Assembly: GCF_009931435.1 (NCBI RefSeq)
Contig: NZ_CP043414.1
Strand: one strand, 5' to 3'
Length of the DNA: 64,000 bases
DNA from: Escherichia coli
GTDB taxonomy: Bacteria; Pseudomonadota; Gammaproteobacteria; Enterobacterales; Enterobacteriaceae
The notes beneath the pieces were generated by a model. That model did not search any database, was not told the origin of the DNA, and worked only from the letters and a program-made list of their open reading frames with translations. A program made the translations under genes and the position numbers. Positions 348 through 7,452 of the stretch are shown here, one piece after another; the stretch's first letter is position 1; every line of letters starts with the position of its first letter.

Positions 348-2327
348 ATGTTTAGGTTTAACCCCTTCGTACGGGTCGGGCTGTGTTTGTCCGCTATTTC
401 TTGTGCATGGCCTGTGTTAGCGGTCGATGATGATGGCGAAACGATGGTTGTCACCGCATCTTCCGTTGAACAAAACCTGAAAGATGCACCCGCCAGTATC
501 AGCGTCATTACCCAGGAAGACCTGCAGCGAAAACCGGTACAGAATCTGAAGGATGTCCTCAAAGAAGTGCCTGGCGTACAACTGACGAACGAAGGGGATA
601 ACCGTAAGGGCGTTAGTATTCGTGGTCTGGACAGCAGTTACACCCTGATTCTTGTCGATGGTAAACGCGTTAACTCCCGCAATGCCGTTTTCCGCCATAA
701 TGATTTCGATCTGAACTGGATCCCTGTCGATTCCATCGAACGTATTGAAGTGGTCCGTGGCCCGATGTCGTCGCTGTACGGTTCCGATGCGCTCGGCGGT
801 GTCGTGAATATCATCACCAAAAAAATCGGTCAGAAATGGTCGGGTACCGTTACTGTCGATACCACCATTCAGGAACATCGCGATCGCGGTGATACCTATA
901 ACGGTCAGTTCTTTACCAGCGGGCCATTAATTGACGGTGTGCTGGGAATGAAAGCTTACGGCAGCCTGGCAAAACGTGAAAAGGATAACCCGCAAAACTC
1001 AACTACCACCGATACCGGAGAAACGCCGCGTATTGAAGGATTCTCCAGCCGCGACGGCAATGTGGAATTTGCCTGGACGCCGAATCAAAATCACGATTTT
1101 ACTGCCGGATACGGTTTTGACCGTCAGGATCGTGATTCCGACTCGCTGGACAAAAACCGCCTGGAACGTCAGAACTACTCCGTCAGCCATAATGGGCGTT
1201 GGGATTACGGCACCAGCGAACTGAAATACTACGGTGAGAAAGTCGAAAACAAAAACCCTGGCAACAGCAGCCCGATTACTTCCGAAAGCAATACGGTCGA
1301 TGGTAAATACACGTTGCCACTGACGGCGATTAATCAGTTTGTTACGGTTGGCGGTGAATGGCGTCACGACAAACTTAGCGATGCAGTAAACCTGACCGGA
1401 GGAACAAGCTCCAAAACGTCTGCCAGCCAGTACGCGCTGTTTGTGGAAGATGAATGGCGGATCTTCGAGCCGCTGGCGCTGACGACCGGCGTGCGTATGG
1501 ACGATCACGAAACCTACGGTGAACACTGGAGTCCTCGTGCCTACCTGGTTTATAACGCCACCGACACCGTAACGGTGAAAGGGGGCTGGGCGACGGCATT
1601 TAAAGCGCCTTCTCTGTTGCAACTTAGCCCTGACTGGACGAGCAATTCCTGCCGTGGCGCATGCAAGATTGTGGGTAGCCCGGATCTGAAACCTGAAACC
1701 AGCGAAAGTTGGGAGCTGGGGCTTTACTACATGGGTGAAGAAGGCTGGCTGGAAGGGGTTGAATCCAGCGTGACCGTTTTCCGCAACGATGTAAAAGATC
1801 GTATCAGCATCAGCCGTACGTCTGACGTCAATGCTGCTCCGGGCTACCAAAACTTTGTCGGTTTTACAGCGGACGGTGTGCCAGTATTCAGCTACTACAA
1901 CGTTAACAAAGCACGTATTCAGGGCGTGGAAACCGAACTGAAAATTCCGTTCAACGATGAATGGAAACTGTCGATCAACTACACCTACAACGATGGTCGT
2001 GATGTCAGCAACGGCGAAAACAAACCGTTGTCCGATCTGCCGTTCCATACCGCTAACGGTACGCTGGACTGGAAACCGCTGGCGCTGGAAGACTGGTCAT
2101 TCTATGTTTCTGGTCACTATACCGGGCAGAAACGCGCCGACAGCGCGACGGCTAAAACTCCGGGCGGTTATACCATCTGGAATACCGGCGCGGCCTGGCA
2201 GGTGACCAAAGACGTCAAACTGCGTGCGGGTGTGCTGAACCTTGGCGACAAGGATCTCAGTCGTGACGACTACAGCTATAACGAAGACGGACGTCGTTAC
2301 TTTATGGCAGTGGATTATCGCTTCTGA
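348..2327 (+). CDS. cirA: TonB-dependent outer membrane receptor, colicin I / catecholate siderophore receptor CirA
   Basis: 659-aa ORF; N-terminus [25 protein letters not shown] with TonB box ETMVVTAS; C-terminal aromatic residue typical of TonB-dependent receptors. Confidence 0.95.
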
Positions 2328-2385
2328 TGCGAAGATGCCCGGCGTGGATCCCGCCGGGCATAATCCCAGAAATTCGCTTCTGGCT

Positions 2386-3708
2386 TTATAACCGATGAAA
2401 TTTTGCCAGTAAGGCCAGTGAAAATGTTGTCAGCAAAATGGTAATGACTGCGTAAATATACACTCCTGACCATTCCCAACTGTTTTTCACCATAATAACT
2501 GGAAGCCCTGCCATTGCCGCGCCTAAATAACTAAACAAGCCCCTGAATCCAGTAATGGAACCTGCCGCATCTTTATGCGTAACATCAAGACACCCGACAG
2601 CGAATAACATATGCGGTCCATACAATGCAAACCCCATGATTGTAAACAGAATAGCCGTTAATGTGTAGGAGACGTCCTGCACCAGCGGTACGAGAACGAT
2701 GCAAATACATAAAGCGATGGCAAAGATTAATCCTGTCATCCAGCGGTTACTTTTAAACATGAAATCGGACAAGTACCCCGCCAGTAATCCCCCAGCAAGT
2801 CCACCTGCTTCAAACCAGGATATAATGGAGTTCGCTTTAATCAGGCTCCAGTTATGAACCTGAGAATAATAAATTTGTGGCCAGTCATTGAGGATGGTGC
2901 GTGCAATATAGACCGACATATCCCCGAGGATAATGAGCCAAACTAATGGGTTGGTAAGAATATATTTAACGAATATTTGCCAAAAACTGAGATCAACCGG
3001 ACTTGCTTTAACTTGTGCAAGTTCTGTCGGGTCGTTGCGCCACTTACCGACGTTAGGCAAACCGAGCGTGCCGGGACGATCTTTTATCGTAAACAAGGCA
3101 ACAATCCCCATAATCAGTGAGATTACACCCGGAACATAAAAGCCCATCTTCCAGCTGCCACTAAAAGCAATAGCAAAGCTTGTCAGGAGAGGCGCAAGAC
3201 TACCGCCAATATTATGCGCAGCTTCAACAACTGCCCACCAGCGTCCGCGTTCATTTTTCGAGAACCACGAGGCCATAATTTTTGCCATTGGCGGAAAACT
3301 GGTACCCTGGAGAATAGCATTAAGGCTATACAGGATATAGAACGCAGCAACGCTGTCTGAAAAACCGAAAAGAATGTTAACAATACCGACGCCAATAAGT
3401 ACGGGGCCAGTCATCGCTCTTGGGTTAATTTTATCGACTAACATGCCACCTACAAACTTCATGGAGCCATAAAGAATGTAAAAGACCGACGACATGATAG
3501 CGAAATCTTGTGCGGTTAATGACGTATCCGTTAACATCGCTGGCATGGCCGCAGAGAAATTCTTGCGGGTTAAGTAAAATACGGCATAAGAGATAAATAC
3601 AGAGGTGATGATTTCAATGCGAAATTTTTTATAAGTATGATCAACTTCTTCTTTTGGTTTGACCACCGGTTGGTCGGCCTGGCTGAAAATAAATTTTTTC
3701 AAACTCAT
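2386..3708 (-). CDS. MFS organophosphate:phosphate antiporter (OPA family; GlpT/UhpT/PgtP-like)
   Basis: 440-aa ORF aligning by eye with GlpT along its length (YLTRKNF, WFSKNERG, GPHMLF-type motifs); RBS aagga 7 nt upstream; AT-rich codon usage. Confidence 0.85.
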   Translation of the reverse strand: MSLKKFIFSQADQPVVKPKEEVDHTYKKFRIEIITSVFISYAVFYLTRKNFSAAMPAMLTDTSLTAQDFAIMSSVFYILYGSMKFVGGMLVDKINPRAMTGPVLIGVGIVNILFGFSDSVAAFYILYSLNAILQGTSFPPMAKIMASWFSKNERGRWWAVVEAAHNIGGSLAPLLTSFAIAFSGSWKMGFYVPGVISLIMGIVALFTIKDRPGTLGLPNVGKWRNDPTELAQVKASPVDLSFWQIFVKYILTNPLVWLIILGDMSVYIARTILNDWPQIYYSQVHNWSLIKANSIISWFEAGGLAGGLLAGYLSDFMFKSNRWMTGLIFAIALCICIVLVPLVQDVSYTLTAILFTIMGFALYGPHMLFAVGCLDVTHKDAAGSITGFRGLFSYLGAAMAGLPVIMVKNSWEWSGVYIYAVITILLTTFSLALLAKFHRL

Positions 3709-3740
3709 TGTGAGTTTCCTTTTCTGTGAACCTTATGGCG

Positions 3741-4628
3741 CTATAATTTTTCTTCTATAAAAAAGAGAAGCGACTCGAAACCATTAAAATTAATCTGGTC
3801 AGCAATTTTTTCCCGGGTTTTAGGTTTTGCTTTCCATGCCACGCCATTTCCGGCATGCAAAAGCATAGGAATATCATTGGCACCATCTCCACAGGCAATG
3901 ATGTTTTCACGGCAGATAGCTAACTCTGTCGCTAAATTTATCAGGGTTTGCTTTTTCTTTTCTGCATTCATAATAGGTAAGGTAATTGTATCAGTTAACA
4001 GATCTTCCTTAATGCGCACAGAGTTAGAAAATGCAAAATCAAGTTGATATTTTTCCTTCAATCGCTCAGTAAAAATATCCAAACCTCCAGATATAATTGC
4101 CGTCTTGAATCCTTTTTCTTTTAGTATGGGAAGAATAGTTTCAAGACCTGGTGAAAGAGTCATCTGTTCACAAACTTTATGCAATATATCTTTATGCGTT
4201 CCTTTAAGCATGGCAATTCGCCGGGTAAAACTGGCATCAAAATCGATTTTCCCTTCCATCGCTTCACGGGTCAGTGCGGTGATTTTTTCAGAGATGCCGA
4301 GTCTACGGGCTATTTCATCGACACCTTCTTCTTCAACAAAGGTGGAATCCATATCAAAGGCAATAATTCCCTGATCCGGTAAGACCTTGGGTTTACGGAA
4401 AAAATCAAACTGATGATTATCAGCACGGTGACGTAAACCAGCATAAAAAGCAGGGTTGGTAACATCATCTGGTAATACTAGCTTTAGATACTCTTTATTT
4501 ATTTGCCCACTGTAATTCGTTGTTAGCGAAAACACCGAGGGGGAAATCTTTAAATGTTGCAGATAATCTTCCAGACATTTTTGGGTGATGTCGATGCCTG
4601 TTGGCGACAAGAAATAAATAATCGTCAT
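3741..4628 (-). CDS. HAD-superfamily phosphatase, phosphoserine phosphatase (SerB)-like
   Basis: 295-aa ORF with HAD motif I FDMDST and motif IV GDGANDIPM; RBS aaggag upstream. Confidence 0.8.
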   Translation of the reverse strand: MTIIYFLSPTGIDITQKCLEDYLQHLKISPSVFSLTTNYSGQINKEYLKLVLPDDVTNPAFYAGLRHRADNHQFDFFRKPKVLPDQGIIAFDMDSTFVEEEGVDEIARRLGISEKITALTREAMEGKIDFDASFTRRIAMLKGTHKDILHKVCEQMTLSPGLETILPILKEKGFKTAIISGGLDIFTERLKEKYQLDFAFSNSVRIKEDLLTDTITLPIMNAEKKKQTLINLATELAICRENIIACGDGANDIPMLLHAGNGVAWKAKPKTREKIADQINFNGFESLLFFIEEKL

Positions 4629-4722
4629 TTACCGCTCCTTTTTATCTGCAATGATTATAATAAGATTTCATAGAGGCTGATGTATCTGACAATCACAGTT
4701 GTGAATGTTAAATAAAAGATAA

Positions 4723-4785
4723 AAAAGTACTTTTTTTGATACTTTGAAATAATAAGATACTAAAAGTACCATTTTTGATATCTTT
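4723..4785. promoter_or_regulatory. Two ~24-bp direct repeats (AAAAGTACnnTTTTTGATAyyTT) in the divergent promoter region of the island
   Basis: Repeat 1 at 4723-4745, repeat 2 at 4762-4785, 16 bp apart, between the divergently oriented phosphatase/transporter and dehydratase/XRE genes. Confidence 0.35.
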
Positions 4786-4838
4786 ACCAGGATATAAAGA
4801 ATAACTATTTTTCAACGTTGAAGGAATCATTTACAAAT

Positions 4839-6191
4839 ATGGAAAGCTGCATAGATATATTCAAGATAGTTATTGGTCCATCCAGTTCCCGCACAGTCGG
4901 GCCAATGCGTGCGGCTTATAATTTTGTGTCACAATTGAAACAGCAAGAAATGTTACCTTTGTTGCGGAAAATTGATGTCGAACTTTATGGTGCGCTGTCA
5001 TTAAGCCGCAAGTGCCATAATGTTGATGTGGCGATTTATCTCGGTTTGCAAGGACACTTACCTGACAGCGTTGACATTCGCATGGAAATGTCCGCCATCA
5101 GGCGTGCAGAAACTGAGGCGACGCTGGAAGTTATGCCTGGTGTCAACGTCAGTGTATCCATTCTTTCTAATCTACAAGCGCATCCGGGGCACCCTTATGC
5201 GATGACATTTCGTGCCAGAGATGACTGGTTTACACTTTATGAAGAAACCTGGTTTTCTATCGGCGACGGTCAAGTGCTAAAAGCAGGAGAGGCGATTATT
5301 CCTCCATCAGTCACTCCACATCCTTTTGAATTCCAGAACGCAAACGAATTATTAAAACTTTGTCAGCAAAACGGATTATCTGTCGCGGCATTAATGATGA
5401 AAAACGAACTGCACTGCCAGACAGCAGCTTTTTTGCATGACGATCTTCATAAAAAATGGGAAGTAATGAAGGATGCGGTTTATCGCGGGATGCATACAGA
5501 AGGATTACTTCCAGGTCCGTTTCAGGTTAACCGTCGTGCCTGTGCTTTATATAAATCGTTGCAGTCAAAGGGGTTTTCCAATGACTTCCTGACTACGCTC
5601 AATTGGGTCAATACTTTTGCCATTGCGGTGAGCGAAGAAAATGCTGCGGGTGGACGTGTCGTGACAGCACCCACCAACGGCGCGAGCGGTATTATCCCGG
5701 CTGTACTGTGCTGGTATGATAAATTCATTCACGAGCTTGATACATACTCCGTTACCCGCTTTTTACTGACCGCTGGTGCCATCGCCATTCTGTTCAAAAA
5801 AAATGCCTCTATTCTGGGTTCTGAAGTTGGATGTCAGGGGGAAATAGGTGTTGCCAGTTCAATGGCGGCAGCAGGATTAGCAGAACTTATGGGCGGGTCA
5901 GTGGCTCAGGTACTTAGCGCGGCAGAAATTGCGATGGAGCATCATTTAGGTTTGACCTGTGATCCAGTTGGCGGGCAGGTACAAATTCCTTGTATTGAAC
6001 GAAATGCTATTTCAGCTGTGAAAGCTATCAACGCAACGACGATGGCGTTGAGTCGCATAAGCGAGCCGTGCATTACGCTGGATGAGATAATTTCCGCGAT
6101 GTATGAAATCGGAAAGGATATGAGCGCTAAATACCGTGAAACTTATCATGGCTGTCTGAGCAAATTGCAGCCAAGAAAAAAGGATGCGTAA
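4839..6191 (+). CDS. Fe-S L-serine dehydratase (SdaA/SdaB/TdcG family)
   Basis: N-terminal [17 protein letters not shown] and internal [31 protein letters not shown] match SdaA signature blocks. ATG at 4839 chosen over the track's TTG at 4818 because of the aagga RBS. Confidence 0.85.
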
Positions 6192-6192
6192 G

Positions 6193-6582
6193 ATGAAATA
6201 TAATACGATGAATAACAACGAAATTATTTTATCACTGTGCGCTCGCATTAAAGAAACGCGTATCTCATTATCATTGACCCAACAGCAGTTAGCCGAGCGT
6301 GCATTGGTGGGCATAGCAACGGTCAAGCGGATTGAAAAGGGGGGAAGTTTAAATCTTGATACTCTCATTTCTCTTCTGCGCGCGCTGAATAAATTGCAAA
6401 ATCTCGATGCCATATTGTTCGAAGCAGAAATGCGTAATTTCAACGAAAATAGTTCCAGCGGCGAAGGGGCAGGGCGACTACAGGTACGCCAGCAACTGAC
6501 AGATTTAAACCAGAAGTCTCCAGCCCCGCACGCAGATGACCATAATTTTAGTACGGCGCTGGAAAATACCCTCTGCTGGTGA
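6193..6582 (+). CDS. XRE-family helix-turn-helix transcriptional regulator
   Basis: 130-aa ORF with HTH block LSLTQQQLAERALVGIATVKRIEKG; aagga RBS 8 nt upstream of ATG at 6193; last gene of the island. Confidence 0.7.
   Translation: MKYNTMNNNEIILSLCARIKETRISLSLTQQQLAERALVGIATVKRIEKGGSLNLDTLISLLRALNKLQNLDAILFEAEMRNFNENSSSGEGAGRLQVRQQLTDLNQKSPAPHADDHNFSTALENTLCW

Positions 6583-7452
<870 letters not shown>

Follow-up and report, generated by a model that had tools for sequence, protein, structure and literature searches.

The 64,000-nucleotide window analysed here, a stretch of the Escherichia coli contig NZ_CP043414.1, carries a cassette of four genes between cirA and yeiG. The cassette encodes a transporter of the organophosphate:phosphate antiporter (OPA) family, a SerB-type phosphatase of the haloacid dehalogenase (HAD) superfamily, a single-chain Fe-S L-serine dehydratase, and an XRE regulator. 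We propose, with a probability of about 0.6, that these genes form a self-contained catabolic unit for O-phospho-L-serine (phosphoserine). In the proposed pathway, the antiporter would swap external phosphoserine for internal phosphate (Pi), and the phosphatase would split phosphoserine into L-serine and phosphate, the latter being recycled through the antiporter. The dehydratase would then turn the serine into pyruvate and ammonium, supplying carbon and nitrogen and avoiding serine overload. The XRE protein probably represses both promoters of the cassette by way of two conserved operator-like sites of 18 bp, and phosphoserine or serine would act as the inducer that lifts the repression.

Phosphoserine uptake and breakdown had been suggested for this locus in a first-pass annotation of the window. 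The idea has survived every in silico test applied, and residue-level and comparative evidence have strengthened it. The proposal is based on a phosphatase that passes the SerB model and keeps the recognition residues, a dehydratase that passes its model with three cysteines in place, and a linkage of phosphatase and transporter genes that has been kept in the enterobacteria, in contigs L016 and L035, and in Photobacterium lutimaris. It is further supported by purifying selection on all four genes, with ratios of nonsynonymous to synonymous substitution rates (dN/dS) of 0.03–0.27, and by conserved operator-like repeats.

Four intact open reading frames (ORFs) are found between cirA and yeiG at the coordinates given in the first-pass annotation. 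The genes of the transporter (2386..3708, 440 amino acids) and the phosphatase (3741..4628, 295 amino acids) lie on the minus strand, and those of the dehydratase (4839..6191, 450 amino acids) and the XRE/HTH_3 regulator (6193..6582, 129 amino acids) on the plus strand. They make up two divergent operons, phosphatase plus transporter (32 nt apart) and dehydratase plus regulator (1 nt apart), separated by a 210-bp spacer of 33% GC (4629..4838) that forms the divergent promoter/control region. With so short a gap between the end of the phosphatase gene and the start of the transporter gene downstream, these two genes are likely co-transcribed. The gene starts first assigned to the transporter and phosphatase stand, while that of the dehydratase moves from TTG 4818 to ATG 4839 and that of the regulator from 6184 to 6193; the corrected starts are those kept across orthologs and in the RefSeq annotation. 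The family assignments of the four proteins hold in profile searches with NCBIfam and Pfam.

The phosphatase scores 208.4 bits against the SerB equivalog model TIGR00338 and passes its cut-off of 144.15, but it fails the model of the housekeeping enterobacterial SerB (201 bits, cut-off 413). Residues D92, D94, E101, M124, F130, R137, S180, G181, K225, D248, N251, and D252 are invariant in the cassette enzymes, E. coli SerB, and the M. jannaschii phosphoserine phosphatase (PSP), in which they align with D11, D13, E20, M43, F49, R56, S99, G100, K144, D167, N170, and D171. In PSP, E20, M43, F49, and R56 hold the amino and carboxyl moieties of serine, and the other residues are catalytic. The cassette phosphatase keeps all catalytic and phosphoserine-recognition residues and is predicted to prefer O-phospho-L-serine. 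The same HAD-IB fold and the same catalytic and phosphoserine-binding residues are seen in the housekeeping SerB and in PDB entry 4EZE. This entry is the Salmonella ortholog; it shares 98% identity with the cassette phosphatase of S. enterica, matches that of the window with 398 bits, and has been deposited under no more specific name than ‘haloacid dehalogenase-like hydrolase’. By comparison with the K-12 SerB of serine biosynthesis, the cassette phosphatase is 32% identical, has a different and shorter N-terminal domain (80 residues, lineage-specific), and is encoded beside a transporter gene, with a proposed catabolic direction.

The dehydratase matches TIGR00720, the model of the single-chain L-serine ammonia-lyase, over residues 10–448 with 545.7 bits (cut-off 345.1). 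Against two equivalog models of particular paralogs it does not reach the cut-offs (509 bits, cut-off 873, and 462 bits, cut-off 942), and it is for that reason classed as a separate, fourth paralog beside SdaA, SdaB, and TdcG. The orthologs of the dehydratase carry fused Pfam SDH_beta and SDH_alpha domains, and the protein matches the structure of the Legionella L-serine dehydratase (4RQO, E = 6e-108). Its three cluster-binding cysteine motifs, CQGE, TCDP, and PCIERN, are kept and aligned with the 4Fe-4S ligands of 4RQO.

The specificity of these two enzymes bears on whether the cassette could serve another phospho-amino compound, namely O-phospho-L-threonine, O-phospho-D-serine, or phosphohomoserine. 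SerB-family enzymes can take related phosphoesters, a tolerance that would allow such a substrate, as would the fast evolution of the cassette phosphatase and its identity of only 32% to the housekeeping SerB. However, all phosphoserine-recognition residues are kept. Also, Fe-S L-serine dehydratases of the TIGR00720 class are specific for L-serine and inactive on threonine or D-serine, so that only an L-serine product makes sense of the dehydratase. We therefore consider a different phospho-amino substrate improbable.

Over its full length, the transporter matches the GlpT structure 1PW4 (E = 5e-69) and also SLC37A4, and it hits the NCBIfam models of UhpC, PgtP, GlpT, and UhpT with E-values from 1e-127 to 1e-58. 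It is assigned to the OPA family of the major facilitator superfamily (MFS; TC 2.A.1.4), and Pi-linked exchange is predicted. It reaches no curated NCBIfam cut-off of the UhpC, GlpT, UhpT, and PgtP groups, scoring 426 bits against the UhpC-like model (cut-off 564), 343 against the PgtP subfamily (408), 217 against PgtP (750), 279 and 266 against two GlpT models (633 and 748), and 198 against UhpT (497). In a cluster library built at 50% identity it falls into a cluster of its own (68%), and the next full-length relative, a UhpC-like protein, is 38% identical. These profile and cluster data place the transporter in a distinct OPA subfamily. UhpC is the nearest characterised relative (39% identity). 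A UhpC-like sensor role has been considered and rejected, as there are no UhpA/UhpB partners nearby and the transporter gene is operonic with that of an enzyme.

The phosphate-site residues of GlpT and UhpT are kept in the transporter as R48, K49, K84, H165, and R270, of which R48, K84, H165, and R270 are invariant in all nine orthologs. The corresponding residues of GlpT, which has the same OPA/MFS fold, are R45, K46, K80, H165, and R269. Another set of residues, E162, D263, H366, R389, R156, and D380, is invariant in the nine orthologs, which come from three bacterial families, and differs from UhpC, UhpT, and GlpT. Position 162 is Asn in GlpT, UhpT, and UhpC. In GlpT, which is 31% identical to the transporter, N162, N262, V365, and T388 stand where the cassette protein has E, D, H, and R, and UhpC has Val in the place of R389. 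The UhpT positions D388 and K391 correspond to T386 and R389, so the D388-K391 salt bridge of UhpT is missing and the cation is uncompensated. In UhpT without D388, K391 is likewise uncompensated and the selectivity shifts from glucose-6-phosphate to phosphoenolpyruvate (PEP) and 3-phosphoglycerate, according to the account in PMC12483993.

Among 121 full-length proteins that represent the nearest OPA clusters, no other carries this residue signature in full. The combination of a neutral residue at 386 and Arg at 389 occurs elsewhere only in a PgtP-like carrier (P0204, 639 bits to the PgtP model), which also has R156 and D263. E162, which lies three positions from the phosphate-binding His, is found in no other representative. 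H366 is rare (His in 5/121), and the PgtP-like carrier has Gln instead. The uncompensated Arg at the UhpT-K391 position, R156, and D263, which the transporter has in common with the PgtP-like representative, suggest a carboxylate-bearing phosphoester as substrate. A transporter related to UhpC by descent, with the charge signature of a phospho-carboxylate carrier plus an extra acid, would fit a phospho-amino acid. Going one step further, we would put at even odds the fuller proposal that the transporter founds an OPA subfamily and is the first dedicated bacterial phosphoserine:phosphate antiporter, in which R389 would bind the carboxylate and E162 the ammonium group of the substrate, and that the cassette would define an unrecognised nutrient niche of Salmonella, Citrobacter, and a minority of E. 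coli.

The same comparison has to be weighed for a PgtP-like carrier of 3-phosphoglycerate, 2-phosphoglycerate, and PEP, in which case the phosphatase and dehydratase would adjust the flux through the serine pathway from imported 3-phosphoglycerate. R389, R156, and D263 are common with P0204, the removal of D388 from UhpT leads to PEP and 3-phosphoglycerate transport (PMC12483993), and Gallibacterium has the transporter alone. On the other hand, the transporter reaches only 217 bits against the PgtP equivalog, for which the cut-off is 750, and is nearer to UhpC, while E162 and H366 are missing from the PgtP-like protein. The Salmonella PgtP itself is ~31% identical to the transporter, and the cassette has no pgtABC regulators. 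In addition, 3-phosphoglycerate and PEP go straight into glycolysis and need neither a phosphoserine phosphatase nor a serine dehydratase, and yet the phosphatase is the invariable operon partner of the transporter in three independent arrangements. A phosphoglycerate carrier is thus unlikely, although it is the alternative to which we give most weight.

The comparative evidence for phosphoserine catabolism comes from the distribution of the cassette and the linkage of its genes. Among 5,426 complete E. coli genomes, the cassette is whole in 85 and any part of it is present in 89, chromosomal every time and at the same locus every time, with alleles 94.8–99.8% identical to that of the window. 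All four, with their order unchanged, have been found beside yeiG-folE-yeiB in E. whittamii, at least eight Citrobacter species, Scandinavium, and S. enterica subspecies enterica, arizonae, and diarizonae, and the cirA-yeiG locus is occupied by the cassette in four genera. All four genes are also present in a metagenome contig (L035, 39.5% GC) with other neighbours, away from the cirA-yeiG context. Contig L016 has the phosphatase (52% identical), the transporter (85%), and an XRE gene next to the transporter, with no dehydratase. In Photobacterium lutimaris the order is reversed: the transporter (68% identical) comes first, a different SerB paralog comes after it, and again there is no dehydratase. 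A phosphatase is the operon partner of the transporter in three independent arrangements. The invariant core is the pair of transporter and phosphoserine phosphatase, which the enterobacteria have elaborated into a four-gene form that behaves as one unit.

In Gallibacterium spp. (L010, L011, and L014; 7001–8320), the transporter stands alone with 77–82% amino acid identity, and its neighbours, a xanthine/uracil permease and ffh, are uninformative. This identity seems high for families as distant as the Pasteurellaceae, to which Gallibacterium belongs, and that of the cassette, and the gene may have been transferred between families. Gallibacterium colonises the avian oviduct, where phosvitin, the phosphoserine-rich protein of egg yolk, is abundant; a link between the transporter and phosvitin is speculation. 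In S. enterica LT2, we take the cassette to be STM2195–STM2198, by our own reading of the numbering. A table in PMC3487940, where the product of STM2195 (t0660 in Typhi) is called a putative DNA-binding protein, fits this identity.

The composition of the core raises the question of whether the cassette mainly scavenges phosphate or serine from phosphoserine, with the dehydratase as a safety valve against serine toxicity. Outside Escherichia, Salmonella, and Citrobacter, the core consists of transporter and phosphatase with no dehydratase (L016, Photobacterium), as would be expected for such a role. However, no Pho box has been found in the promoter region, an antiporter that exchanges its substrate for Pi would bring little net gain of phosphorus, and in four genera the dehydratase and regulator are retained at this locus and subject to purifying selection. 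Scavenging as the main role is therefore also unlikely, slightly more so than phosphoglycerate transport.

In an alignment of eight taxa, the spacer at 4629–4838 has diverged strongly between genera except for four conserved blocks, one of which, ATTATAAT, lies at 4654–4661. Two operator-like sites are found on the plus strand, O1 (AAGTACTTTTTTTGATAC, 4725..4742), with a core inverted repeat GTAY-N7-GATAC, and O2 (AAGTACCATTTTTGATAT, 4764..4781), 39 bp from O1. They are two copies of AAGTAY-NN-TTTTTGATAY, each with the GTAY...GATAC inverted repeat. The motif AAGTAYNNTTTTTGATAY occurs twice in the 64-kb window, both times in the spacer, with 0.00 occurrences expected from shuffled sequences. 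The O1-type motif has been kept in Citrobacter, Salmonella, E. whittamii, Scandinavium, L016, and L035, and in the latter two contigs it is upstream of the phosphatase gene. The two sigma-70-like matches to a promoter of the dehydratase operon overlap O2; the promoter/terminator scan of the cassette performs no better than on shuffled sequences.

The regulator matches Pfam HTH_3 (PF01381, E = 3.5e-9) over residues 19–66, and its C-terminal ~60 residues have no domain match. It accompanies the cassette in every enterobacterial version, and we presume that it acts as a repressor at the predicted sites O1 and O2. No consensus sites for CRP, PhoB, or FNR are found in the control region, and no Rfam family, structured RNA or riboswitch, matches at E ≤ 1. 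Another of the four conserved blocks is a perfect palindrome, TCACAGTTGTGA (4693–4704), which is preserved in Escherichia and Citrobacter and, in part, also in Salmonella and L016. This palindrome differs from the two operator-like repeats and fits no CRP spacing.

All four cassette genes are under purifying selection. In pairwise comparisons with other E. coli alleles and E. whittamii, dN/dS is 0.03–0.05 for the transporter, 0.11–0.15 for the dehydratase, ~0.1 for the regulator, and 0.16–0.27 for the phosphatase, in which one very close pair with few substitutions gives 0.56. The phosphatase also evolves at a much higher rate than its operon partner, with 59–63% amino acid identity between genera vs. 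88–92% for the transporter, and 82% vs. 95% in the comparison with E. whittamii. Its G+C content at third codon positions (GC3), 0.34, is the lowest in the cassette.

Several points weigh against the assignment of the cassette to phosphoserine. The substrate is predicted, on the evidence of sequences, and no reported activity of any of the four proteins has been found in the papers and datasets searched. The role of E162 is derived from the alignment, and R389, R156, and D263 are common to the PgtP-like carrier and would by themselves allow phosphoglycerate or PEP for the transporter alone. The fast evolution of the phosphatase could reflect a relaxed or shifted specificity. The Gallibacterium transporter has no phosphatase or dehydratase gene nearby, and the lack of a dehydratase in L016 and Photobacterium means that the catabolic arm is not universal. 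Furthermore, three E. coli strains, MB53, CFS3246, and strain 35 (records H83–H85), have lost portions of the cassette to IS1A insertions, and the dehydratase gene is frameshifted in E. coli 90-3040 (record H78). In S. enterica, the transporter gene has undergone at least three independent inactivations in different lineages, by a 1-bp deletion, K234stop, and W223stop; the inactivated genes (~5262–6585) are found in the subsp. enterica sequences L027, L028, and L029, while that of L030 is intact. Because of this repeated inactivation and the IS1 and frameshift damage in E. coli, the function of the cassette is dispensable.

At the extreme, the cassette could be a decaying remnant that no longer has a function in E. 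coli. The absence of the cassette from ~98% of E. coli genomes, the IS1 insertions, the frameshifted dehydratase gene, and the independent nonsense and frameshift mutations in the Salmonella transporter gene can be read in this way. But all four ORFs of the window are intact, the promoter elements have been kept, and each of the four genes has a dN/dS well below 1 in comparisons within E. coli as well as between genera. We regard a remnant without function as very improbable.

The cassette had been described as an AT-rich insert into E. coli, acquired horizontally. The AT-richness relative to the flanks is borne out: the cassette genes have a G+C content (GC) of 0.39–0.46 and a GC3 of 0.34–0.47, compared with 0.51–0.54 and 0.56–0.63 for the flanking genes cirA, yeiG, folE, and yeiB. 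The notion of an insert into E. coli needs correction, as the cassette is not specific to this species: E. whittamii, Citrobacter, Scandinavium, and S. enterica have it at this site too. The cassette is an old island of conserved synteny, missing from most E. coli. Horizontal movement is real, but it looks like homologous recombination, not site-specific insertion. A mobile element or site-specific genomic island has been rejected: there is no integrase or transposase among the four ORFs, no IS, and no flanking repeats at the junctions, and the occupation of the same locus in four genera also counts against it. A role in anti-phage defence has been dismissed too, since PADLOC gave only weak HTH matches.

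The evidence for recombination comes from yeiG (6583–7419, minus strand), the right flank of the cassette. The yeiG allele of the window is ~90% identical to the allele found in 5,394 of the 5,426 E. coli genomes. Alleles at least 99% identical to it occur in 17 of the 5,426, the same as the number of genomes with a cassette allele at least 99% identical. The divergent part extends over 6583–7332, and identity to K-12 returns to 98–100% at ~7333, inside the 5' end of yeiG. The remaining cassette-positive E. coli have ordinary yeiG alleles. Because the divergent yeiG travels with the cassette here and ordinary yeiG alleles are found in the other cassette-positive strains, the cassette and most of yeiG in this lineage seem to have arrived together, as a single segment that homologous recombination brought in from a divergent relative. 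The yeiG segment of the window is only ~85–95% identical to that of E. whittamii.

The components of the cassette come from known families, and what is probably new is an OPA subfamily with a new substrate class tied to a two-step catabolic route. Full-text literature searches, the coverage of which is incomplete so that prior work is possible, have returned nothing on bacterial phosphoserine import or catabolism. They have likewise returned nothing on the cassette, in keeping with the earlier statement that it has not been characterised as a unit.

The design of the cassette mirrors glpT/glpQ or sdaCB. The glpTQ-glpACB system follows the same logic, with an organophosphate:Pi exchanger beside enzymes that consume the import, in divergent operons. 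The cassette instead pairs its transporter with phosphoserine phosphatase and serine dehydratase, and an XRE protein takes the place of the regulator GlpR. In the sdaCB and tdc operons and the D-serine locus dsdCXA, a transporter is likewise found beside a serine deaminase in a compact catabolic unit, and dsdCXA resembles the cassette in its strain-variable presence. In contrast to these three systems, the proposed import into the cassette pathway is that of a phosphoester through an OPA antiporter, not of an amino acid through a symporter, and an extra dephosphorylation step is needed.

If the proposed pathway is correct, a function would be assigned to a conserved four-gene locus of S. enterica, Citrobacter, and some E. 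coli, and phospho-amino acids would join the substrates of the OPA antiporters as a new class, for which specific residues could be examined. Phosphoserine would serve as a source of carbon and nitrogen, which could add to the niche differences among enteric bacteria; candidate sources of free phosphoserine are host cells, casein, phosvitin, and other phosphoproteins, and the action of phospholipase C on phosphatidylserine. The transporter could also provide a dedicated importer for genetic-code-expansion work in which phosphoserine is fed to E. coli. The patchy presence in E. coli and the repeated loss of the transporter in Salmonella make a natural experiment in the gain and loss of a metabolic trait. 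A phosphoserine cassette would overturn nothing established.

On the left side, cirA (348–2327, plus strand) flanks the cassette. As stated in the first-pass annotation, cirA and yeiG are neighbours in K-12, where the gap between them is 31 bp and holds a hairpin only; the DNA of the window that is extra to K-12 spans ~2345–6582. Between the convergent cirA and transporter genes, a G+C-rich hairpin with arms ATGCCCGGCG and CGCCGGGCAT can be read from the sequence at 2335..2361 and is likely a bidirectional terminator. Its left arm is common to the K-12 cirA-yeiG hairpin, and similarity to K-12 stops at ~2344, the left edge of the extra DNA. CirA has 659 amino acids here and 663 in K-12 and other cassette-positive strains, and the local identity of cirA to K-12 falls to ~91% around 1801–1950. 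This divergence may reflect diversifying selection on a colicin/phage receptor. A broken cirA together with homopolymer indels is seen in L026, and these are probably assembly errors. At the right edge, the stop codon of the regulator abuts that of the convergent yeiG (6580–6585), with no spacer and no terminator, and their S. enterica counterparts share an overlap of 12 nt; convergent transcription must therefore enter the neighbouring gene.

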